Shown: piece after piece, positions 798 through 53,207 of the stretch
Layout: every line of letters starts with the position of its first letter
How positions within the stretch are numbered: the stretch's first letter is position 1
Source: Candidatus Heimdallarchaeota archaeon
GTDB lineage: Archaea > Asgardarchaeota > Wukongarchaeia > Wukongarchaeales > JBHIFL01
NCBI GenBank assembly: GCA_046761065.1
Contig: JBHIFL010000008.1
Span: 7,306-71,305 of the forward strand
DNA length: 64,000 nucleotides
Direction of reading: 5' to 3'
The notes under the pieces: model-generated
What the model was told of the DNA's origin: nothing
What the model saw: only the letters and a program-made list of their open reading frames with translations
The model's database searches: none
Program-made: the position numbers and the translations under genes

Positions 798-2147
798 TTA
801 TGATGATGATGAAATTCCCTCGACCCAAGAGGGGCGTGTGCTGAAATTCTTGGCTTCGATGTGAAATTCAAGCGCTGTCGTGTTCACCTCATGTAGATCT
901 TCAGAAATTATTCTCCTCTTGATGAACCGTTTTCTCAACTCCTCTGCGAAAGCTTCAGGAAATATAATCACTTCTTTTTGATCATCAAACCGCTCATACC
1001 CGTCAAATGAGGGGCCAAGAGGATCAATACTCCATCGCATATGAAAATCTACTATGGGACCGTACCCTGCAGGTAGCTGTGTAAGACGAATGCGACGATT
1101 TTTTGTAACTTTTAACAGATCTAAACCAAACATACCGAGCCGAAACAATTCGGCATTTCCTCTAATTTCCTCATGGGTAAGTTCTATGAAGGTTCGGACA
1201 TGCCGACGAGGAACAATCTTGAGTTGAAAGTTATAAGATGGTGCAAATGCGGCACAAAGGGTTCCAAAATCATTTTCCGCAATACGCAACATTTCAAACG
1301 GCATAGGCATCCCGCCAAACTCGAAGATGCCTCCACGTTCACAATGACAACACATACATCCTTCTCCTTCTTCCTGACGTTCTTTGGCAGTCAAGATCGC
1401 TTGTTCCATCATTGTAGAATGGCCTGAGTCCGATAAATCAGCATAGAGTTTAGCAAAAATAGGGTTATTATTTTTACTTGATGGAGTAATCAAATTAAGG
1501 AAGATCTCAAAAGGGATCGTAGAAACATATCGTTCTTCTGGGGTGAGTTTGACCGAGTTTCCTGCGCATTCTTGAATGATGAGCTGTTGACTCTCTTTTA
1601 TTGCATGAAGAATCATCTCTAACTGCTCTAGCGGCATTTGCAGAAAATCCATATAAAGATTGGTAGGAAACGTAATAAGAGAGATTCCATATGCCATGTT
1701 GGGAATGGCAGAACTTATATTATCAACCCGGACCATTGGTGGGAATCGGTCAATTAAAGAAATGGCAGAATTAGGTTCAAATGAATATTTGTGCAAGCTC
1801 GTAGAAAACAAATCGTCGCCCATTTTGACTCTATTTTGTTGATCGATCATTAAAATTGGGAGGCAAAAAGCCGTCCCTGATACCAATTTATCAAACTCAT
1901 GGGATATTTTGGGGGGTGTTGTTTGGAGTGAAAGTGGGTTATCATTTCGCGCGGCACGAATATAGGAAACTCCCCCATGAACTTTACCTATATATTGTCC
2001 GTTTAGTTGGATTTTTCTTGTTCTGAATGGATCATAACGCTTGATTGGAAATCGGAATGGAGGAACGCCTTGAGCGTTCTCTTCTGTTATAATGCCCCAA
2101 TGCATAAACGGAATATACTTTGGCACTTCTTCATTGACTTTCCGCAC
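798..2147 (-). CDS. GalT-branch HIT-superfamily nucleotidyltransferase-like protein, paralog A (catalytic HxHxQ motif missing)
   Basis: 449-aa ORF, roughly half identical by eye to the 3466..4822 product along its full length. The C-terminal half has CMCCHC plus the HIT-like QLKIVPRRH. Where the paralog reads GGSIDHIHGQLYADLSD, this copy reads SKNNNPIFAKLYADLSD, with no histidines. Confidence 0.7.
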   Translation of the reverse strand: MRKVNEEVPKYIPFMHWGIITEENAQGVPPFRFPIKRYDPFRTRKIQLNGQYIGKVHGGVSYIRAARNDNPLSLQTTPPKISHEFDKLVSGTAFCLPILMIDQQNRVKMGDDLFSTSLHKYSFEPNSAISLIDRFPPMVRVDNISSAIPNMAYGISLITFPTNLYMDFLQMPLEQLEMILHAIKESQQLIIQECAGNSVKLTPEERYVSTIPFEIFLNLITPSSKNNNPIFAKLYADLSDSGHSTMMEQAILTAKERQEEGEGCMCCHCERGGIFEFGGMPMPFEMLRIAENDFGTLCAAFAPSYNFQLKIVPRRHVRTFIELTHEEIRGNAELFRLGMFGLDLLKVTKNRRIRLTQLPAGYGPIVDFHMRWSIDPLGPSFDGYERFDDQKEVIIFPEAFAEELRKRFIKRRIISEDLHEVNTTALEFHIEAKNFSTRPSWVEGISSSS

Positions 2148-3197: not shown

Positions 3198-3465
3198 AGA
3201 TCCCTAGTTCATGGGTCTTTTTCGATATTGCAATGAATTGTTTAAACATTCGGACATTCAGACAATTCCTTTTCGATTTAAGTGTTTTCCTAGCTATTTT
3301 TTGCAAAGATTGATAAATAATTGTTTTCTAAAGAAAAACCTATTAAAGCTCTCAACTTTGAAGAATCTGATATTCGCTTAACCAAAAAGGTACTTAAAGC
3401 ACTAGGTGAAAAACTCATTATTTTCATCTATAAAGTAAAATAGGTTCTATAAGGTGACAAGGGAT

Positions 3466-4822
3466 ATGCGACAAATTGATGAATCGACGCCTCAAGTGAT
3501 TCCATTCATGCATAGAAGCGCACTCAGTCGTGTTCTTCGCAGATTGGGGAATCATCTCAAAAACTAATATGGTGGGTGTCGAACCCTGGCAGTATCCAAT
3601 TAAACGATTTGATCCATTTCGAATGCGGCCTATCCGAATTAAAGAACAGCCGATAGGAAAGATAACAGGTCGATTCACCTATATAAGTGCAGTTAGAGCG
3701 CAAAGGCCTATGACCATAACTCCCGCTTCTATAGGTGAGAAGTCCCCCACACAATTTGTGTATGAGAAGATAGTTTTAGGTCAAGACTATTGTATCCCTA
3801 TTTTGACAGTAGATGGAAACCAAGAACTCCAGATATATAACAATCTTTTTTCAACCACTGCCCATAAATACGATTTCGCGGAAGATTCGGTTATCTCAAT
3901 TATCAATAAATTTCCTGCCATGGTTCGCTATGATGAATCTAACAGTGGCATCCCGAACCTTGCTCGAGGGCTTTGTTTGGTTGCGTTTCCCACGAAACAT
4001 TATACACGATTATTAGATATGCCAAATGATGCTATTTCAGACCTTTTGTTGGCATTACAGGAGTCACAACGATTAATTGCTGACACAACAACGGGGAAAA
4101 TCGTTCCACTGGTTCCTGAAGGGCGATACGTTGAGACTGTCACTATTGAAGTTTTCTTTAACATCGGAGCAGCTGTTGGAGGATCAATTGATCACATTCA
4201 CGGTCAACTTTACGCTGATCTTTCAGATACTGGACATTCGATCACCACCGAATGGGCTATCTTAACGGCGCAAGACAAAGAGCTAGGGTGCATCTCATGC
4301 CGAATGATACAGGGAGATATTAAGGAACTGGGAGGCATCCCTTTCCCATTCGATCGCTTAAAGATCGCTGAAAACGCATATGGAGTCTTGTATGCGAGTT
4401 TTGCTCCGACAGCTAATTATCAGTTAAAAATTATCCCGCGCCTTCACCGCCGTTTTTTCACGGATTTCACCCCGGAGGAACTTGATGCACTTGCAGAATT
4501 GCTACGGTTAGCTTTTTTTGGCCTTGATTACCTGGAAGTTCCGGCAGATAGGAATATACGGTTGACACAACTTCCCCATGGATATGGGGCCGAGACAGAT
4601 TTCCATTGTCGATGGTCGATCGATCCATTTGATACTTTTGGGGGTTTTGAGCGGAGAGGTGATCAGAAGGTTGCAAAAGTGTTTCCAGAGCATATAGCTT
4701 CGATGTTACGCCACCTCTTTCTCCAGCGACGCATTATTACACCCGACTTGTATCACATCAATAGTGCTGAGCTAAACAAACACATCAGAGCCAAACGATT
4801 GAGCCAACTTCTTTCTGATTAA
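3466..4822 (+). CDS. GalT-branch HIT-superfamily nucleotidyltransferase-like protein, paralog B (HxHxQ present); frame interrupted by 31 nt at 3514-3544
   Basis: ATG 3466 follows GGTGA (3453-3457) and encodes MRQIDESTPQVIPFMH, collinear with the paralog A N-terminus. The frame resumes at TGG 3545 (WGIISKTN...). The uninterrupted track ORF starts at GTG 3530. Contains FFNIGAAVGGSIDHIHGQLYAD (GalT-type HxHxQ), then CISC and YQLKIIPRLH (second, degenerate HIT half). Confidence 0.75.
3514..3544 (+). other. 31-nt frame-breaking insertion; candidate bulge-helix-bulge mini-intron
   Basis: Removing 3514-3544 joins ...ATG CAT to TGG GGA... and gives a gap-free alignment to paralog A. A hand fold gives two 3-nt bulges separated by a 4-position helix and flanked by helices (details in findings). 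Confidence 0.35.
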
Positions 4823-5728: not shown

Positions 5729-7033
5729 TTGTTGATGATTACTTTGAATTCGACAACATCCTCACGAAAGAATGATAACTTTGCTCTCATTCATGGGCCA
5801 AGCCATGTCACGTTAACAAAGGGTTGTATGGAGGTTTTTGGAAAGATAATTGAGCAAGGAGAATCATTTATCGTGCCCTATGGGAAAACAACACCTGTTA
5901 TCCTTCGATCAGAGACTCAACTCTCTGATCTTCAAGTCAAATCCGGTACAGGAGGAGCTCTCGAACATTTAACAGAGAATCCAATTCCTAAGTTATGGGG
6001 AGATCTTGCCAATCAACTCATCATGACCCGAGAAGCTCTTTGGATGATAATCGGTGGTCCTGATACTGGTAAAACTGGACTAATCACCTTCCTTGTCAAT
6101 CAATGTTTACTCAAAAACAGAAACACAGCAATCATTGATAGCGACATTGGACAGTCAAATATCGGTCCTCCCACTACCATCGGGCTTGCAATGCCTTCCT
6201 CACCAGAAATCTTTCTATCTAACCATCCAATGAAGCAAGGTTACTTTATCGGGTCAACAAGCCCTCGTAGCCATCTCCTTCAAACCTGTTGTGGTGTCCG
6301 GAAGTTGGTAGATTCTGCGTATGACCTTGGAGCTGAGATTGTTTTGCTTGATACCTCTGGCTATATTGAAGGATCTGCTGCACGAGCCTTGAAATACCAT
6401 AAAGCAGTGCTAATTGAGCCCTCCTCCATATTAGCTCTTCAACGTGAGAATGAATTAGAACATATTCTCACGTCCTTAGATAGTTTCGCACCTATAGTCC
6501 GCATGGACCCGCCTTTTTCAGTTCAGTTAAAAAATCATGATATTCGAGGTACCTATCGGGAAACACGGTTCAAGAAAGTCTTTGCAGGCGCCCGCTCAGT
6601 TACTTTTTCCTTTAAGGATGTCCGGTTGTTAGGAACCGCACTTGGGTATGGGACGTCCATTACAGCATATGAGAAATTAGTTAAGCTGCTTAATACAAAA
6701 ATTATATGGGCTCAGAAAAATTCTGATCGGTTGCTACTTGTAGTTCAGGAACAATTCTCCACACAAAACCTAGACTTGCTGAAAGAAGAGTATAACGTAA
6801 AACAAATCCAATTTATATTCTATCGAGACCTTCTAGGCTTGATTGTAGGGTTATTGGCTGAAAATCACACCTTCTTAACCGTAGGTCTTCTCCAAGACAT
6901 CCGATTTAATGAGAAGATAGTTATTCGCACAACAGTGAATAAACCAGAGCAAGTGAAATTCATTACATTGGGAAGGATCCAGCTTACCCAGGATGGGAAA
7001 CAGATCGGTCGGATTCCTGTTGGTTATCTCTAA
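5729..7033 (+). CDS. Clp1/Grc3-type polynucleotide 5'-hydroxyl kinase
   Basis: P-loop IIGGPDTGKTGL is followed by AIIDSDIGQSNIGPPTTIGLA, which matches the Clp1 signature (compare human GPTDVGKST ... ELDVGQGSVSIPG, recalled from memory). Confidence 0.8.
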   Translation: MLMITLNSTTSSRKNDNFALIHGPSHVTLTKGCMEVFGKIIEQGESFIVPYGKTTPVILRSETQLSDLQVKSGTGGALEHLTENPIPKLWGDLANQLIMTREALWMIIGGPDTGKTGLITFLVNQCLLKNRNTAIIDSDIGQSNIGPPTTIGLAMPSSPEIFLSNHPMKQGYFIGSTSPRSHLLQTCCGVRKLVDSAYDLGAEIVLLDTSGYIEGSAARALKYHKAVLIEPSSILALQRENELEHILTSLDSFAPIVRMDPPFSVQLKNHDIRGTYRETRFKKVFAGARSVTFSFKDVRLLGTALGYGTSITAYEKLVKLLNTKIIWAQKNSDRLLLVVQEQFSTQNLDLLKEEYNVKQIQFIFYRDLLGLIVGLLAENHTFLTVGLLQDIRFNEKIVIRTTVNKPEQVKFITLGRIQLTQDGKQIGRIPVGYL

Positions 7034-7119: not shown

Positions 7120-8402
7120 ATGTTGAAAGACATAGGTAACTGTTTAATTCTACGTAATTTAATGGAATCTGATCGAGAATCTTTATTAGAACATGTTAAG
7201 AACGTTTTTGATAGCAACCAAGTTGGAGGGAGTGTTGTTCTCTTAACGAAGCAATTATTGGACTACTATCCAAGATTCTCTATGCAAGATAATTTTGTAG
7301 TTTCGACACTACACGAAACAATCAAGTTGTAGCCTGGCTCTGTTTACTTCGTAAAACCTGTGTTTTTGAAGGAGTTGAGCTCATTTATGGCCAAATGGAT
7401 ATGGTAGGAACCCAGAAAGAATATCGAAATCGCGGCCTTATACGTCAGCTCAGCAATGCAATTGACGAACGAGCCGCTGAATATGGTCTCCCATTCATTG
7501 TTGTTTTAGGGATTCCCTATTTTTACAAAAAACTTGGATATGATTATGCAATTGCTTTTGAAGAAAGTATTCGAATCCCTCTTGAACGCATTCCTCCTCT
7601 GCAGAAGGGTGAAGAAAAGGCGTTTAATATAGAAAAAGTCGATAATATGACTAATTTTAATCTATACTTAGCAATCCGAGCTAAACGAAATAAGCACTTA
7701 GATCTATATCAGCAAATACCAGTATCTTCCCTCAAATTTTATAGTTCTTTTAATTTAGAAGAAACTAATGAGGTTAGGCATTTTTATTTGGTCAAAAAGG
7801 AGGGGAAACCGATTGGGAATTTCTATATTGTAATGAGGTTTGGCTTTCTGAGAATTCGAGAATGCTATGTTGAGGATATGGCTGCGATTCCCAGTATTTT
7901 ACGATTTGCAAGAGATTTAGCTGCACAATATCAATTACCCATTACAATTGCAAAACCTGCACAAGCGGCTCTTATTCCAGTTATCAAACAAATTACTGGA
8001 ACCAACTTTACTGATCCCTATGCATGGTACGTTAAAATTCCGTCTTTGAAAATGTTTTTAGAAAAAATCACTGAAGTTTTGGAAAAACGATTGGAAAAAT
8101 CTCGATATCAAGGATTAGATGCTATTATTAGAATTAACAATTATAAAACAGGTATTGGTCTAATATTTCAAAATGGAAAGCTCAAATCTATCACAGAACT
8201 AAGTATGGAGGAGATACAAAATAGTAAACAGCCTTTCGATTTACAAATTCCTCCCGATATTTTTATTCAGTTACTTATGGGATATAGAACGATCGATGAA
8301 CTTGAAGCGATAACATTTGATGTTATTTGCACTAGTAAAATGAAAAGTTTACTGAATATACTCTTTCCAAAAGTAAAAGCCAGTTTGACACCTGCGATGT
8401 GA
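7120..8402 (+). pseudogene. Eis-like GNAT N-acetyltransferase with an apparent -1 frameshift near 7300
   Basis: Track ORFs 7120..7332 and 7395..8402 belong to one protein. The second frame is open from 7293 (..FDTTRNNQVVAWLCLLRKTCVFEGVELIYGQMDMVGTQKEYRNRGL, GNAT motif A). The frames overlap at the T-run 7301-7303. The C-terminus (IFIQLLMGYRTIDELE) resembles the SCP2-like tail of Eis-type enzymes. Confidence 0.6.
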
Positions 8403-11367: not shown

Positions 11368-11522
11368 TCAAAATTTAATGATTTTCTTACGAAGATGATG
11401 GAGTTCACAAATTCTAACGAAATCATTTAATCCATAATTTCAATTTCTTTAAGACTTATATGTTATTTGTTAAGTGTTTACTTTCTTAAAAAGCCATTAT
11501 GGACCAAAATCACTCTTTTTGC

Positions 11523-12760
11523 TCAGCAAAAGGCCCCTTTCACTATCTTTCCAACCATTACAACTACTATTAGGGTTGCAATCGCTCCCAAACCTAAACC
11601 AAGCAAGAAAGATGACCTATGTAGCTCTTCAGGAGTGATTATAATCGTTAGGACTTCGGAAGGGATAGTTGTTGGCTCGATAGTCGTTAGCTCTTCGATC
11701 GTGGGGATCTCAGGGAAAATCTTGACAGAATAGTCGGGTTCTGGTTTCGTTTGGGAGATAAGAAAAAGCCGCGTGCCATTGACAACTAAATCTACTGGAA
11801 ACACTAATTTTGAAGCTTTTGCTTCAAATGGCCGGCTATGGCGTTCATATCAAGGGAATGAACCCAATAGTTTCCATCTTGCAGACCAAATGGGGTGAGA
11901 TCCAAGGAATAAGTGATGCTGCGATACTCTGAATAGAAGTTCGAGAACCCAACTAAGATCGTTTCCTCGTCCAACTTTGCCTGGGTGATCAGAATATTTT
12001 CATTGTCTTTTATGGAAACATTATTACTGATGTTCAAGAACTTTGCAAAGGCGCGGAAGACTTTCCTATACAGGAACCACACATCTGTCGGTTTTTCTAA
12101 ATCGTAAGTTTCCCAAGTGACCCCGGGAGTTTATGACGACTTGAAAGCTCCCTAATAGAGTATCCACCCACTTTTCGGATTCAATTCATTATGGTAAAGA
12201 ATGAGCGGATAATCTTCTAGCTTATGAATTGTACCATCCTCCGCTATGTGTGAAGTTGCCAATGGGGTAATAGTTCTCGTTCAACTGCTCAAGTTGAAGC
12301 CCCCAAATTTCGTGAAAGTGCCTATCGTAAGCCAGCTCTAGATCAAGGATGTTTGGCTGGGTAATGTTGATCTTTATGTCCCCCCATGTATATGGTTGAA
12401 TTGTATTCTCCTCAATAGGAAATCGGTGCATTCTAGTATCGTTCGCATAGATATTCTCGAGAGGTCCAATGCCCCCCAAAAACATGAGGTTCCCTCCCTT
12501 TGCAACATACTCATTCAGCTTTGAACCGTCTTTTCGCGGTACTTAACATTAGAGAGTACAATTAACTTGTACTTGGAGAGATCTAAATCCGTCCTTGCAA
12601 AAGCTCTTTTATTTACGGCATCAAACTCGGAGCATAGCCCAACAACATCTACAAAAAACCCTGCAGAATGGCTTGGTAGAAACCCCTCACCAATCGCAAG
12701 GACTTGTGTTTTCGGTTTCAGCTCTGGTAACTTTACTAGCTCTTGGTTCTAGCGATTCCT
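11523..12760 (-). pseudogene. multiply frameshifted gene for a surface protein with a Thr/Pro-rich linker and C-terminal TM anchor
   Basis: Three consecutive minus-strand track ORFs (12222..12485, 11804..12082, 11523..11804), plus open frames between and upstream of them, read as one protein if frames are switched (e.g. ..KLQ / LVFPVDLVVNGT at about 11805). Upstream is YVAKGGNLMFLGGIGP (DUF4350-like). The C-terminus is TIEPTTIPSEV..LLGLGLGAIATLIVVVMVG. Confidence 0.45.
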
Positions 12761-13063
12761 GAATATAAAGAGCTATCTACCTTGCCTGTCTGTCCTTTCA
12801 TAGGGAGGGACTAGTTCAAGAGTCCCCCACATTGGGTCTCCTTGAGATTATACGAATCCTGAGGGTGCACATTATTTTTGAGCTTGAAGTTCAACGGTGA
12901 ACTCAGAGATAAGATAGTGATGCGAAAGGAGGCTTGCAAGCCCTTGTCATCCAAGTCCTCAAGGTTTGTCATTATTGAATGGGGGGATATTTAAATATAA
13001 TAAATGCTTATTTTTGGAAACGAGACAAATTGAGTGAATGGGATGACTGGGATATAACGTAAA

Positions 13064-13504
13064 GTGACAATATATCTTGATACCTCAATTCCAAATGCTT
13101 TACATCATGAACCCGCCGATCGAAAAGAAACAACTTCTCTCCTGTTCTCACGAATCCTGCCGCTGTATGATGTTTTCATCTCCGAACTTATCGTGGCAGA
13201 ACTTCAAGCTATCCCTGATTCCGGATTACGAAAAGAGTTAGTTGAATTGGTTAACCCATTTCACGTCTTACCCATACGTCCCAATGCTGAAGCCTTGGCG
13301 GGAGAGTATCTCAAATATCTCAACATACCGTAAGCCGATGCCCTTCATATCGCCATTGCTTCTATCGAAGGCATCAATTATCTAGTCACCTGGAATATGC
13401 GCCATATTGCTCGAGAACGAACGCGAAGAATTGTGGATAACACAAATTTCTTATTTGGAGCCCCCAGAATCTATATCGTCACACCGGACGATTTAGTCGA
13501 CTAA
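13064..13504 (+). pseudogene. PIN-domain (VapC-like) protein with in-frame TAA at 13331-13333
   Basis: N-terminal IYLDTS and then, after the stop and in the same frame, ADALHIAIASIEGINYLVTWNMRHIA (PIN acidic and TWN motifs). The frame stays open to TAA 13502-13504. Confidence 0.6.
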
Positions 13505-13516
13505 GAAGTGAGAGAC

Positions 13517-13723
13517 ATGCTATCCACCGAAGAAAAGGAGAAGTTATGGAAACAAGTGGTGAGGGAGTTCCCCTCGGATCCCATGATGCGCGACCTCCAT
13601 TTCATTCGAGCCTTAATGGCTGCTTTGAAGCAACAGAAACCCAGCAAAACCTATCTGGAATTAAGTGAGATAGTTCGAACAGAATTCCTTGACTGGTTGA
13701 AAGTCTCTCATAACGTGCCGTAA
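13517..13723 (+). CDS. hypothetical small protein downstream of the PIN gene
   Basis: ORF MLSTEEKEKLWKQVVREFPSDPMMRDLHFIRAL... starts 13 nt after the extended PIN ORF. No motif recognised. Confidence 0.35.
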   Translation: MLSTEEKEKLWKQVVREFPSDPMMRDLHFIRALMAALKQQKPSKTYLELSEIVRTEFLDWLKVSHNVP

Positions 13724-14197
13724 TCGCATTTTTGCGTTAACCATGGATTAAATGGGATAATCCCTGCCGTATTGAGAAGCTTCTAATCTCAAAATCCTAC
13801 GGAAGTGGAGGAAGAATTCCATGTTAAAAGTAAACTATTGTGGTCTATAGACGCAAGACCGTCACCATTTCTTCCTCTCGTTTGAAAAGGATCAAGCGGA
13901 ATTTTCGGTTTACGGTCCACTTCTGCGTCTTTTTTTTCTACGGGGTCTATCTTTTCACCCCGCGCTTCGTGTGTGTGTTCTGTGATCTCCTGCAGGTGGC
14001 ATTTAACCTGCAGCTCGGAAATGGCGCGCATCCGCACGCTTTAAAACCCATACGGGGCTAAGCATTTTTACACATCCCTGTTAAAAGAAAAATCTTGTAA
14101 GAACTTTAGGAGACTCGCGAGTATAAATTAGAATAGTTATTAGAGAGCTTTTTATGATTAACGAGAGAAGAATTCCCTCTTCTTGTAATAAAAAGCA

Positions 14198-14965
14198 TTA
14201 TATAGTTCTTGATAACTCCATTAATTTTTTTACCCGATCCTCAATTGTGGGATGTCTGGAAAAAAGGTTTCCGAGTTTTCCGTGATAAGATTTGAGTGGA
14301 GAGTCGATTATCAAGAAACTTCTTCCCACAGGAGCCTTAAAATCTAAATTGGGTTGTGTTTGATAGCATTTTGCCATCTTAATAAGAGCGGAAGCTAATG
14401 CGATGGGGTTGCCAGTAAGGTGAGCACTCTCCTCATCGGCGCGGAACTCTCGATGGCGTGAAACGAAAGACTCCATTAGGGGCCCCAGAGGAAAAGAACA
14501 ATATCTTCCAATGATGAAGAATGCTTTTAGAAACACATCTTTATTCTTGATGTGAGAAATCTCATGAGCGGCAACGCTTTGTACCTCTTCGCTACTAAGG
14601 TTCTCAAAGATGCCTACGGAGAAGACTATTAGATAGTTATGTGGTCCAAGAAACAATGTGAACGCATTAGGTAAGGCATCGTCCAGTAAACATATCTGGA
14701 TCTTTGCAGTTATCCGGCTTTTTTTGGTTAGCTTATGAATCTCATTTTTTAGTTCTGTACAATCTTGATTGGCCATAAACTTAACTTTTTGCTTATGCAA
14801 AACCGTTTTACTGCCAATCCAATACCATAGGAGTCCTAAAAAAAATAACGAACTGTAAAATGAAACTACAATGATAGTGACTTCGGATGAAAAACTCAAT
14901 AGAGGAAGTATTATTGTCGTTGTTAGGTATGTAGTTATGACAACCACTTTACCCCGATTATTCAT
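14198..14965 (-). CDS. M48-family membrane metalloprotease, BlaR1-like sensor/antirepressor
   Basis: N-terminal TM helices, the HEISHIKNKD zinc motif (HExxH), and a 4-nt start overlap with the upstream BlaI-like gene. Confidence 0.8.
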   Translation of the reverse strand: MNNRGKVVVITTYLTTTIILPLLSFSSEVTIIVVSFYSSLFFLGLLWYWIGSKTVLHKQKVKFMANQDCTELKNEIHKLTKKSRITAKIQICLLDDALPNAFTLFLGPHNYLIVFSVGIFENLSSEEVQSVAAHEISHIKNKDVFLKAFFIIGRYCSFPLGPLMESFVSRHREFRADEESAHLTGNPIALASALIKMAKCYQTQPNLDFKAPVGRSFLIIDSPLKSYHGKLGNLFSRHPTIEDRVKKLMELSRTI

Positions 14966-31740: not shown

Positions 31741-32995
31741 TTAACTTTTACTTTTGCTAAGATAATCATAGGCTGAAAGCACAAGGATCTTCACAATCTT
31801 GAGAAATTCTTCCACCTCAACATATTCGTCAGCTGCACCCATGTTGTGAGGAAATGGCCCGTAAACGTAAGCCGGTAGTTTCGATAACGCCAAAGGCGGC
31901 AGTCAGTGCCACCAAGGCTAATGGTGGGCTCTGGTTTTATTCCACTTACTTGAATGGCATTTGTTTGCAAGAAGTGGACCATATCCCCATTTGGGGCGCA
32001 AGAACTTGGAGGGTTGTAGATTATTTCTTTATAACTCACTTCAGGGTAGCAGGAAACGATTTTTTCCACCTCGGTTAAAACACGTTCCTTGTTCATTCCT
32101 ACTGGCAGTCGGATGCCAACTTCAAACACGCATCTCGCAGGTACCATGTTGACCTTCAATCCCCACGAATTGATCCGATATTAACAGTGATCTTATCTAA
32201 AATCTCCGACGCTCCTTTCCCATACACCATATCATTGATTTTTGCGGTCCTCTTCAGAGTAGTCACGATATTTTCCGGGACGGATACCTCTATCATAGTT
32301 AAGGCCTTAACCTCTTTTATTAGGCGACTTGCAATCTTAATTGCACTGGGGCTTGCATGGGTATAAGCGCCATGGGATCCAAGCGTGTGCACCTCGAAGG
32401 CAAGCCATAAGGAGCCTTTCTCTCCAAATCGTATAGTATAAGGACTCCCGGGCTCGCCGCTTAGACAACAGTCACCATGAACCTCAGGGAGGTGCATTAT
32501 CAAGTAACGGGAACCCCAAGGACCAAATGTCTCTTCATCAGAAACGCATGTCAAAGTTAATTTGCCTTTTAACTTGTCTCAAATACGATGGAGGTAAGAG
32601 AAAGTGAAAATCAAGGCAGATGTCCCGCACTTCATATCAGCCGCGCCTCTCCCATAAATTCGGCCTTTGGCGATGGTAGCAGACCAAGGCTCATATGTCC
32701 AACCTTCAGTATCATCCACTGGGAAAACAGCTATATGACCATTTAGCACCAAATGTCGACCCGGCGCACCACACTCGAATGCGCCAACGACATTTGGCAT
32801 CTCCTCCTTTGAAGCAATAATTTTGTAGGGCAGTTTTTGCTCGTCAAGGAACTGACTAATATGTTTGACAGCCGCGCGAGTGTCTCCTGGTGGATTTGGA
32901 CTCTTCGCTTGAATAAAACAACGAAAAAAATCAATTAGTTTATCCCGGTCTTCATCAATCCAGTGTAATAGCCTTTCCTTCTTCTGGTTATTCAT
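31741..32995 (-). pseudogene. M20-family metallopeptidase (ArgE/DapE/CPG2-like) with one in-frame TGA and two frameshifts
   Basis: Three track ORFs (32579..32995, 32156..32554, 31791..32159) are collinear parts of one M20 protein. There is an in-frame TGA at 32579-32581 (YLHRI*DKLKG). A shift occurs at the C-run 32161-32164 (expected GSIRGGLKVNMVP). Another shift near 31880 restores ..YGPFPHNMGAADEYVEVEEF.. ending at 31741. Confidence 0.65.
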
Positions 32996-51933: not shown

Positions 51934-52329
51934 ATGAGTTCCAATAAGAGGATCTTAAAAACGACATGTAAAAGTTGTCATGGTGGTTGCGGAGTACTCG
52001 TTACCGTAGAAAATGGTAGGATAACTCTTATTGAAGGAGATCCAGACTCACCTACCGAGGGAACAATGTGCTCTAAAGGTCTTGCAAGCACCCAGGATGT
52101 TTATAATCCGAATCGAATTTAATATCCATTGAAAAGGGAGGGAAAATATGGAGAAGGGAAATGAGAAAGGATCAGTTGAGAAGAAGCTTTAACCATCATT
52201 GCAAAAAAAAGAAGGAAGCCATCGAAAAGTATGGTCCTACCTCCATTGGTATCAGCCAAGGAACGGGGCGAGGGTACAATAGATATACATTCAGGTTTGC
52301 AAGATCCATTGGCACACCAAATATATTCC
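51934..52329 (+). pseudogene. remnant of a molybdopterin oxidoreductase (N-terminal 4Fe-4S domain only), with nonsense codons and a frameshift
   Basis: MSSNKRILKTTCKSCHGGCGVLV (CxxCxxxC). In-frame TAA at 52120-52122. TGAs at 52162-52164 and 52177-52179 fall where the family has Trp (GK*ERIS*EEAL versus GkW..iSWdEAl). Frame switch in an A-run near 52205. The remnant ends after about 130 codons. Confidence 0.6.
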
Positions 52330-53207
52330 TCCCAAACGCCGTACCTACCTATAACTCCAGAATAGATAGCCGAGGAGGGTTATAAAGCGTGGAAGGCTGG
52401 TGCCTCTGTTGTTCATGTCCATGCCTGAGATCTGAAGATGGGTAAGCTTACACCGGTTCTTAATGTTTTCCGTGAGATTCTCACTCAAATCAAGGAAAAA
52501 TGTGATGTGGTCATTTGTGTTACTACAGGTGGGGCTTTGGGTATGGCGAAGGAGGATCGGGTGGCGGTTGTTCCTACATTCAAGCCCGAAATGGCCTCCT
52601 TTAATATGGGTTCATAAATTTCAGTATTCACCCGGTTCTGGAGAGAATTAAGGAATGGAAATACGACTGGGAGCAGGAGTATGCCGCTTCAACCAAAGAT
52701 ATTGTGTTCCGTAATACATTTGAAGACTTAGAATATTTTTTGGAAACAATGAAGGAGAACGACTCTAAGCCTGAACTTGAAATTTATGATGGCGGTCACC
52801 TTTACAACGCCGCTTTCCTTGTTCGAAAAGGGATCTTGAAACCTCCTATTCATATGCAATTTGTAACTGGCGTTCTAGGCGGAATAGGTAATAGAATCGA
52901 CGACTTGTACTACCTTAAAAATACCGCAGATCGTTTGATAGGCGCCAGTAACTACTCTTGGTCAGTAATAGGGGTTGGCTATCCAGCTCAATTTCACCTC
53001 GGTGCTATGTCGATCATGATGGGCGGCCATGCACGAGTTGGCTTGGAGGACAACATTTACATTGAAAGAAGGGTTCTCGCAAAAAGTAACACTGAAATAG
53101 TCGCTAAAATCGCTCAGATTGCAAAACTGCTTGGTCGTGAAGTAGCCACACCCAACGAGACTAGGCGAATCCTCGGATTGAAAGGAATAGATAAGGTTAA
53201 TTTCTAA
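52330..53207 (+). pseudogene. 5'-truncated beta-keto acid cleavage enzyme (BKACE/Kce-like, DUF849) with TAG, TGA and a -1 frameshift
   Basis: TPYLPITPE*IAEEGYKAWKAGASVVHVHA*D with TAG at 52363-52365 and TGA at 52426-52428. PEMASFNMGS is followed by a shift near 52611. The intact C-terminal part is track ORF 52704..53207 (GGHARVGLEDNIY). Confidence 0.65.

Follow-up and report, generated by a model that had tools for sequence, protein, structure and literature searches.

A candidate 31-nt intron of the bulge-helix-bulge type within a GalT-like coding sequence of a Heimdallarchaeote

Can a protein-coding gene that is broken by 31 nucleotides (nt) shortly after its start still yield a full-length protein? 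The question is raised by a locus of Candidatus Heimdallarchaeota archaeon (assembly GCA_046761065.1, contig JBHIFL010000008.1), of which positions 7,306 to 71,305 were analyzed. This whole 64,000-nt (64-kb) stretch, with a G+C content of 40%, is designated the “window”, and all coordinates are given within it unless another sequence is named. A gene on the forward strand opens at ATG3466 behind the Shine-Dalgarno (SD)-like sequence GGTGA (3453-3457), is read for 16 codons (exon 1) and then loses its frame; the homologous frame picks up at TGG3545, in the +1 frame, 31 nt past exon 1 (exon 2). These coordinates had been given in an earlier inspection of the letters alone (the “sequence-only reading”) and were found to be correct. 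The same reading had proposed that the insert is removed as an archaeal bulge-helix-bulge (BHB) intron. We consider it likely that the 31 nt at 3514-3544 are an intron of the BHB or bulge-helix-loop (BHL) type, spliced by EndA and RtcB, within the coding sequence of a GalT-like protein of the HIT superfamily. Because BHB look-alikes are frequent by chance, this case is built on borders fixed by homology and on conservation, not on the motif.

Borders, distribution and conservation of the insert

The sequence-only reading had held that deletion of 3514-3544, or equivalently of 3513-3543, gives one open reading frame (ORF) without gaps relative to a paralog at 798-2147. This was reproduced: the ORF encodes 441 amino acids (aa), removal of 3512-3542 gives the identical product, and no gap arises at the junction against the paralog on the reverse strand, against the intronless orthologs or against 13 distant homologs. 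The junction (marked here and below by a slash) splits IPFMH/WGII, the N-terminal motif of the family, for which the signature is IPF[MG][HN]/WG[IT]. Splicing would restore His16-Trp17 and is predicted to give the RNA junction ...AUGCAU/UGGGGA..., that is, ...CAUGCAU/UGGGGAAUC..., with CCATTCATGCATTGGGGAATCATC as the spliced 24-mer, CATGCATAGAAGC and CGCAGATTGGGG as the unspliced junctions, and ...TTCGCAGAT/[A/T]GAAG... as the junction of a circular intron. The predicted N-terminus is MRQIDESTPQVIPFMHWGII for the spliced protein versus MFFADWGII for one started at GTG3530. The insert is not a repeat, being a single copy in the window and occurring once per orthologous locus. Neither Rfam (gathering and permissive thresholds) nor ARAGORN gave a match at the site or in the window.

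Orthologous DNA was drawn from independent assemblies in NCBI, ENA, JGI and Logan. A 31-nt insert of identical site and length was present in at least 10 independent Heimdallarchaeota assemblies and in seven distinct sequences. Insert-bearing loci were taken from GCA_046758425.1 (L001), Logan SRR29324603 (L013), ENA ERZ23499174 (L007), GCA_012975005.1 (L004 and L009, same contig), GCA_975961345.1 (L010), Logan SRR10836660 (L011), ENA ERZ23499022 (L012), ENA ERZ27251113 (L002) and JGI Ga0114921 (L005, the same species as L002, with 2095 of 2100 nt identical); the window's own allele was found in further assemblies. For L001, L004 and L007, orthology is backed by synteny (RNase HII, the target gene, a cyclase and a Clp1-like kinase). 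All 17 other sequences in our alignment, designated A5, are without the insert. The paralogs and 13 distant family members in A5 lack it, and in L003 and L008, orthologs at a greater distance (72% identity), the site reads ...ATTCCATTTATGCAC/TGGGGAATC.... Since distant orthologs, paralogs and other family members do not have the insert, parsimony suggests a single gain in the ancestor of a clade with at least 81% protein identity. Within the GTDB genome collection, a protein-pattern scan returned no relative, and the intron DNA pattern returned only a chance bacterial match (L006).

Divergence was determined for pairs among four representative sequences. Values of 25-71% were obtained at 4-fold degenerate sites and of 17-54%, with many indels, in the 150 nt upstream of the start. 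The insert showed 3-7 differences over its 31 positions, against a neutral expectation of 8-22, and never an indel. It evolves 3-4 times more slowly than neutral sites, and the lowest binomial p value relative to the neutral rate was 4.5e-8 (window versus L002). Exon 2 is intact in all orthologs, and its divergence at codon positions 1, 2 and 3 (0.06-0.18, 0.04-0.10 and 0.20-0.52, respectively) indicates purifying selection on what appears to be a working gene. The first 30 nt of exon 1 had 3-9 differences, a divergence similar to the exon-2 average, and the last 18 nt had 0-1. In the seven sequences exon 1 starts with ATG or GTG and keeps its frame with zero indels or stops, and its replacements are conservative (I/V/L, D/N, E/D, Q/K).

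These values bear on whether the insert could be a neutral lesion in a decaying gene, or a sequencing or assembly artefact. The window does hold genuine pseudogenes, as had been cautioned (an M20 peptidase gene and a BKACE gene), along with a 1-nt frameshift in a GNAT gene. An assembly artefact is nonetheless excluded because at least 10 independent assemblies carry the insert, and a pseudogenising lesion because the insert is conserved and in every assembly the remainder of the gene is unbroken and subject to purifying selection. Neither neutral evolution of the lesion and its flanks nor added lesions, by which a pseudogene would be recognized, were found. Alignment of orthologous loci, which had been set beforehand as a test, returned an insert conserved in seven distinct sequences with one compensatory pair, and plain pseudogenisation was not seen. 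A lesion or artefact should be considered effectively refuted; as judged by comparison of the orthologs, the insert is a selected element within a functional gene. Established by these comparisons are the insert, the exact restoration of the frame, its absence from relatives, purifying selection, coding constraint on exon 1 and substitutions that preserve the structure described below.

An alternative that dispenses with splicing places the start at GTG3530 or further downstream. The upstream ORF of 16-33 codons and the hairpin within the insert would then form a translational or regulatory leader, for example in termination-reinitiation coupling. GTG3530 had been named by the sequence-only reading as a start that rescues most of the protein. 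It is indeed conserved in seven of seven sequences and used by gene callers (P0002, 430 aa), and in L001 and L002 the upstream ORF ends at a TGA located 13 nt 5' of it. The spliced product is absent from protein records, and a regulatory leader would equally predict a conserved hairpin. Against such a start, GTG3530 has no SD and is sequestered in a stem (3521-3523 paired with 3530-3532), and its product would lack IPFMH; this is half of the N-terminal motif that all family members, even those at ~30% identity, retain. Exon 1, with its own SD and start, evolves as coding sequence of that same motif. A start at GTG3530 also leaves unexplained why the borders of the insert fall at the exact BHB cleavage positions, and why the L002 change at 3533 (F to V when read from GTG3530) compensates a change at 3520, outside that ORF. 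We regard this alternative as rather unlikely.

Two translational routes from exon 1 into exon 2 were considered as well. A single +1 or -1 ribosomal frameshift was rejected: in L001 and L013, frame 0 stops at a TGA right after CAT and the exon-2 frame meets a TAG in the loop, and in L004, L007 and L011 a TAA or TAG also lies in the exon-2 frame. Because L001 and L013 have stops in both frames, a single frameshift could not connect the two exons, and the insert is non-coding. Translational bypass would require take-off at CAU3511-3513, with 31 nt skipped over the hairpin and landing before UGG3545. The hairpin does begin right after the take-off codon, UGA directly follows CAU in three of the seven sequences (L001, L013 and L002), and AU stands at both borders (CAU...GAU). 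The landing codon GAU is unlike the take-off codon CAU, however, and the stop after take-off is not conserved, being replaced by AGA in five of the seven sequences. Bypass also leaves unexplained the pairing of the intron 3' end with exon 1 and the helix between exons 1 and 2. We know of no bypassing in archaea, and consider this route very improbable.

Fold of the insert and the proposed splicing pathway

Folding of 3490-3560 with RNAfold gave -21.3 kcal/mol (z = -2.8; 3 of 200 shuffles were as good), and the consensus fold of the orthologs has the same architecture as that of the window. The outer helix, with pair probabilities of 0.94-0.98, is invariant in the seven sequences. The central helix contains three Watson-Crick pairs (3509-3511 with 3539-3541), as had been cautioned, plus A3508.G3542; all of its positions are invariant, and pair 3511-3539 has a probability of 0.77-0.90. 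A 3-nt bulge at 3512-3514 was obtained in the minimum free energy (MFE) structure of each of the four sequences folded (window, L001, L004 and L002). Within the inner hairpin, eight of eight pairs are kept in the seven sequences, with pair 3520:3533 occurring as G.U, A-U or C-G, and all six loop positions vary. GCAGAU at the 3' end of the intron is invariant.

Across the seven sequences, 19 of 19 pairs were kept in all cells (100%), versus 36-62% when partners were slid. Ten intron positions vary, namely the third bulge nucleotide, the mismatch, six loop nucleotides and both partners of one pair. Variable positions account for 8 of 12 unpaired versus 2 of 19 paired positions (Fisher p = 0.002), and the two paired changes constitute one covarying pair. 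At this site the folds of intronless homologs were not significant (z = 0.19, 1.55 and -0.49), and only five of the eight outer pairs are present in them. The 8-bp outer helix with a significant fold is confined to intron-bearing orthologs, and the GUG codon that extends this helix is specific to their clade.

Is the motif a BHB? The sequence-only reading had drawn a canonical 3-4-3 geometry by hand. All of the pairs it listed exist, and the outer helix (8 bp), the three central pairs, the 5' bulge and the hairpin were returned by RNAfold; the second 3-nt bulge was not reproduced. Two 3-nt bulges with a 4-bp helix between them, which define the strict hBHBh' motif, are thus absent from the MFE structure, where only the 5' bulge is favoured. 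In that structure C3507 pairs with G3542 and U3506 with A3543, positions 3544-3547 are unpaired, and a 5x6 internal loop contains the 3' site. In the strict fold the bulge is A3543-U3544-U3545, C3507-G3546 and U3506.G3547 close it, and A3508.G3542 takes the fourth place in the central helix; the probability of C3507-G3546 was 0.08-0.23. The insert does have the features of the relaxed HBh'/BHL class, with one canonical bulge between central and intron helices and a second site in a loop at symmetric distance. As modelled, the motif is relaxed and BHL/HBh'-like, its 5' half canonical and its 3' half not.

The archaeal splicing endonuclease cuts between bulge nucleotides 2 and 3 (PMC2738675), a rule that the sequence-only reading had given correctly. 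Applied here, it predicts cuts after 3513 and after 3544, which coincide with the homology-fixed, frame-restoring excision as had been anticipated; of the three equivalent excision registers, only 3513/3544 fits BHB geometry. With insert length and position held fixed, 0.3% of shuffled inserts matched the motif quality in any equivalent register. The length of 31 nt is within the known range (16-44 bp for cbf5 introns and 11-175 nt for tRNA introns; PMC2738675). An (alpha-beta)2 EndA that carries a Crenarchaea-specific loop (CSL) cleaves relaxed BHL motifs, among them the one in cbf5 pre-mRNA (PMC3241643), and Asgard archaea, Heimdallarchaeota included, have (alpha-beta)2 EndA with a CSL/L1 loop (PMC5829648).

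From these observations we infer cleavage, ligation and the enzymes involved. As the pre-mRNA folds, AUGC of exon 1 would pair with GCAG at the 3' end of the intron, the 8-bp helix between exon 1 and exon 2 would close the motif, and the conserved hairpin would occupy the intron. EndA, the tRNA-splicing endonuclease, would cut after U3513, between nucleotides 2 and 3 of the clean 3-nt bulge, and a second time after U3544, in the looser bulge or loop. An RtcB-type ligase would join ...AUGCAU to UGGGGA..., giving His16-Trp17 and the 441-aa protein.

Several results weigh against splicing. To form the canonical 3' bulge (3543-3545), the RNA must adopt a suboptimal structure that is 4.5 kcal/mol less stable than the MFE (-16.8 versus -21.3), and the central helix has just three Watson-Crick pairs and an invariant A.G. 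Conservation of structure includes a compensatory change among orthologs; note that the formal covariation statistic, with one covarying pair, is not significant alone (85 of 500 shuffles). No covariation is available from the outer and central helices, which contain exon sequence and are invariant, and coding constraint alone could account for this. GTG3530, despite its position within a stem, is retained by every sequence. A perfect BHB look-alike at the GNAT gene (7301-7323) is a chance match, so motif matches alone are weak. Genes for EndA and RtcB are not in the 64-kb window. Finally, the spliced proteins were not found by exact look-up in a collection of 15 billion proteins, which is mostly DNA-derived and hence uninformative on this point.

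An extension of the intron reading would make the insert a regulated frame switch, the spliced RNA encoding the full 441-aa enzyme and the unspliced RNA a 16-33-residue peptide or the GTG3530-truncated enzyme. The weak 3' site, together with the competing fold (C3507-G3542), would be the tunable step. By analogy, such a switch might be an Asgard counterpart, conceivably an evolutionary forerunner, of XBP1/HAC1-type splicing, which depends on a tRNA ligase. Regulation of this kind strikes us as doubtful, and the evolutionary parallel as equally so. Features of the candidate intron and its gene are listed in Table 1.

Table 1. Positions of the candidate intron, its structural elements and flanking features in the window
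Feature	Positions	Strand	Description
Intronless paralog	798..2147	-	449 aa; reference for the exon junction; divergently transcribed
TATA-like box	3429..3434	+	TATAAA here, TTAAAA in orthologs; ~35 nt 5' of ATG3466
SD-like GGTGA	3453..3457	+	8 nt 5' of ATG3466
Exon 1	3466..3513	+	16 codons, MRQIDESTPQVIPFMH; last codon CAT 3511-3513
Outer helix h, 5' strand	3496..3503	+	pairs with 3548-3555; 8 bp in MFE
Central helix H, 5' strand	3508..3511	+	AUGC (exon 1); pairs with 3539-3542 GCAG, intron 3' end
5' splice-site bulge A-U-N	3512..3514	+	predicted cut after U3513; third nucleotide A/U
Candidate BHB/BHL-type intron	3514..3544	+	31 nt, AGAAGCGCACTCAGTCGTGTTCTTCGCAGAT
Inner hairpin h'	3515..3538	+	4 bp, C/U.U mismatch, 4 bp, 6-nt loop 3524-3529
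3' splice site A-U/U	3543..3545	+	predicted cut after U3544; in internal loop 3504-3508 x 3542-3547
Exon 2	3545..4822	+	425 codons plus stop (4820-4822); starts TGG, WGIISKTN...; GalT-like, HIHGQ
Outer helix h, 3' strand	3548..3555	+	pairs with 3496-3503

Protein family, neighbouring genes and look-alikes

The closest database proteins come from Candidatus Heimdallarchaeota metagenome-assembled genomes (MAGs). The family is small, comprising seven clusters at 90% identity among 5.8 billion proteins, and an exhaustive profile search added 119 more distant representatives. Within the HIT superfamily the protein is GalT-like and remote: it contains the HIHGQ motif and gave weak matches to DUF4921, GalT and GalT in the PDB. 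Public gene calls (P0001, P0002 and P0003) start within or after the insert (416-434 aa) and none includes exon 1; the conserved N-terminal motif is therefore missing from all deposited proteins of the intron-bearing clade. AlphaFold was run on the seven-sequence alignment to probe whether this motif is structural, and returned an uninformative pLDDT of 43. P0154, a distant homolog with an apparent start at the M of FMHWG, was tried as a second intron case and rejected: its DNA reads SDEIPFMHWG contiguously, and the start had been mis-called.

In the paralog at 798-2147, PIFAK replaces the catalytic HxHxQ (HIHGQ), as it does in its orthologs P0005 and P0006. The paralog is likely to be a partner that lacks catalytic activity, or else a degenerate copy of the enzyme that bears the intron. 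The divergent arrangement of the two genes is kept across species. In the MAG GCA_046758425.1 (L001, 7186-8507, reverse strand), the target's paralog is a pseudogene, with a TAG in LNG*HIGK (the asterisk marks the stop here and below) and a 1-nt indel, and the intron-bearing copy beside it is intact.

Upstream of exon 1, the GGTGA SD is kept in all seven intron-bearing sequences and also precedes the start of the paralog. The TATA-like box is among the few conserved blocks of the otherwise divergent, indel-rich upstream region, and is a putative promoter element. A consensus scan for promoters and terminators was empty; its bacterial model is uninformative on archaeal sequence. A Clp1-type P-loop protein (PF16575, polynucleotide 5'-kinase family) is encoded 900 nt downstream of the intron-bearing gene (5729-7033, forward strand), and this synteny is kept in L001, L004 and L007. 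Eukaryotic Clp1 associates with the tRNA splicing endonuclease. The proximity here is probably a coincidence.

The window was also scanned for BHB motifs that merge ORFs. Strict-quality look-alikes numbered 53-76 per strand in the 64 kb. A second intron was considered at 7301-7323, where a perfect canonical hBHBh' would fuse ORF 7120-7332 to GNAT ORF 7395-8402. It was rejected because eight homologs align without gaps to the 1-nt-corrected reading DNFVVFDTTRNNQVVAW; excision would delete D63 and T64, which are invariant in homologs. The look-alike (7289-7330) overlaps the lesion by chance, and the lesion itself (7301-7303), judged by this alignment, is a 1-nt deletion in a T-run, which may be either a true frameshift or a sequencing error in the homopolymer. 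The corrected Eis-like GNAT acetyltransferase gene (7120-8402, forward strand) reads …DNFVVFDTTRNNQVVAWLCLL… and encodes 427 aa, gapless against 427-aa homologs.

Other broken genes in the window are decayed. An M20/M25/M40 peptidase gene (31791-32995, reverse strand) is spread over three ORFs with one in-frame stop (…YLHRI*DKLKG…) and two frameshifts, and is a genuine pseudogene. Two decayed genes adjoin at ~51950-53207 (forward strand): an N-terminal fragment of molybdopterin-oxidoreductase type (CKSCHGGCG…) with in-frame stops, and a gene for a beta-keto acid cleavage enzyme (BKACE, ~52300-53207) with stops at conserved positions (TPE*IAEE, HVHA*D). Other adjacent ORF pairs, analyzed with Pfam in 3-frame translation, proved to be separate genes or had no Pfam match. 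A stretch of ~2.8 kb (11400-14200) has only short ORFs (<95 aa) on both strands, with a PIN-like fragment at 13064-13333, and may contain small toxin-antitoxin genes or further gene remnants.

Significance and comparison with known systems

For archaeal coding sequences, interruption by an endonuclease-type intron has been demonstrated since 2002 in cbf5 of some Crenarchaeota alone. If our reading is true, the GalT-like gene would represent the second gene family in which a BHB intron lies within coding sequence, and the first such case among Asgard archaea, and the tRNA-splicing machinery would act on coding mRNAs in Asgard archaea, of which Heimdallarchaeia are the archaeal lineage closest to eukaryotes. 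Such introns could also be gained recently, here inside a single clade whose proteins are at least 81% identical. Standard gene callers would systematically truncate the genes concerned, and all database entries of this gene would start at the wrong codon. The locus would provide a concrete, easily tested substrate of an Asgard EndA, and genome-wide searches that look both for conservation and for an insert breaking the frame could be modelled on it. The literature searched did not report any BHB intron in an mRNA of Asgard archaea. A 2023 review counted two archaeal mRNAs as endonuclease substrates and expected more (PMC10485636).

Five known systems invite comparison. Phage T4 gene 60, which undergoes programmed translational bypass, resembles the present gene in that its frame is broken by a gap some tens of nucleotides long and a hairpin stands where the gap begins. 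Also shared, by some of the orthologs here, is a stop right after the last decoded codon. The present gene differs from it in that take-off and landing codons mismatch, the stop is kept in some sequences only, and BHB-like pairing links the gap to the upstream exon.

In XBP1/HAC1 splicing, two 7-nt stem-loops are recognized by Ire1, a kinase-RNase that serves as the endonuclease, and RtcB or Trl1 acts as ligase; the reaction is cytoplasmic and stress-regulated. The XBP1 intron has 26 nt, its removal switches the frame, and the 2',3'-cyclic phosphate and 5'-OH ends are joined by tRNA ligase. Common to both cases is a very short, spliceosome-independent intron whose removal changes (here, would change) the reading frame. 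The difference lies in the use of Ire1 rather than EndA and a BHB, and in the stress regulation.

Intron motifs of archaeal pre-tRNAs were reportedly described by Marck and Grosjean in 2003. These introns have canonical hBHBh' or relaxed HBh'/BHL motifs (PMC3241643). The recognition element and enzymes proposed here are the same, the size is within 11-175 nt, and one canonical 3-nt bulge, a 4-position helix and a looser second site correspond to the BHL/HBh' class. Differences are the location in an mRNA coding region, the invariant A.G in the central helix and the lack of a tRNA body.

The sequence-only reading had stated that BHB introns in mRNAs are essentially known for cbf5 only. This is so for confirmed coding-sequence cases, but a 46-nt BHB intron in the 5' untranslated region (5' UTR) of Haloferax volcanii HVO_1309 is also known, from circRNA-seq and in vitro cleavage (PMC7714728). 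It shares with the present candidate a short BHB-flanked mRNA segment, conservation of sequence among relatives and the tRNA splicing endonuclease (proposed here). It differs in lying in an untranslated leader, where no frame is restored, and in having a canonical BHB and an alpha2-type EndA of strict specificity.

The closest counterpart is the cbf5 pre-mRNA intron, reportedly described by Watanabe (2002) and Yokobori (2009). In the Crenarchaeota (Desulfurococcales and Sulfolobales), cbf5 introns interrupt coding sequence and their splicing was shown experimentally (PMC2738675). Like the candidate, they are short (16-44 bp there, 31 nt here), often break the frame and have a relaxed BHB at their borders, with cuts (predicted, in our case) between bulge nucleotides 2 and 3. 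In both cases the host lineage has hetero-oligomeric (alpha-beta)2 EndA with a CSL/L1 loop, the genes are mis-annotated by gene callers, and the phylogenetic distribution is patchy, suggesting gain or loss. The two differ in host gene (a pseudouridine synthase there, a GalT-like HIT-superfamily protein here) and in lineage (Crenarchaeota there, Heimdallarchaeia of the Asgard archaea here). The candidate intron lies at codon 16/17, near the 5' end of the mRNA, and its splicing is predicted where that of cbf5 is demonstrated.

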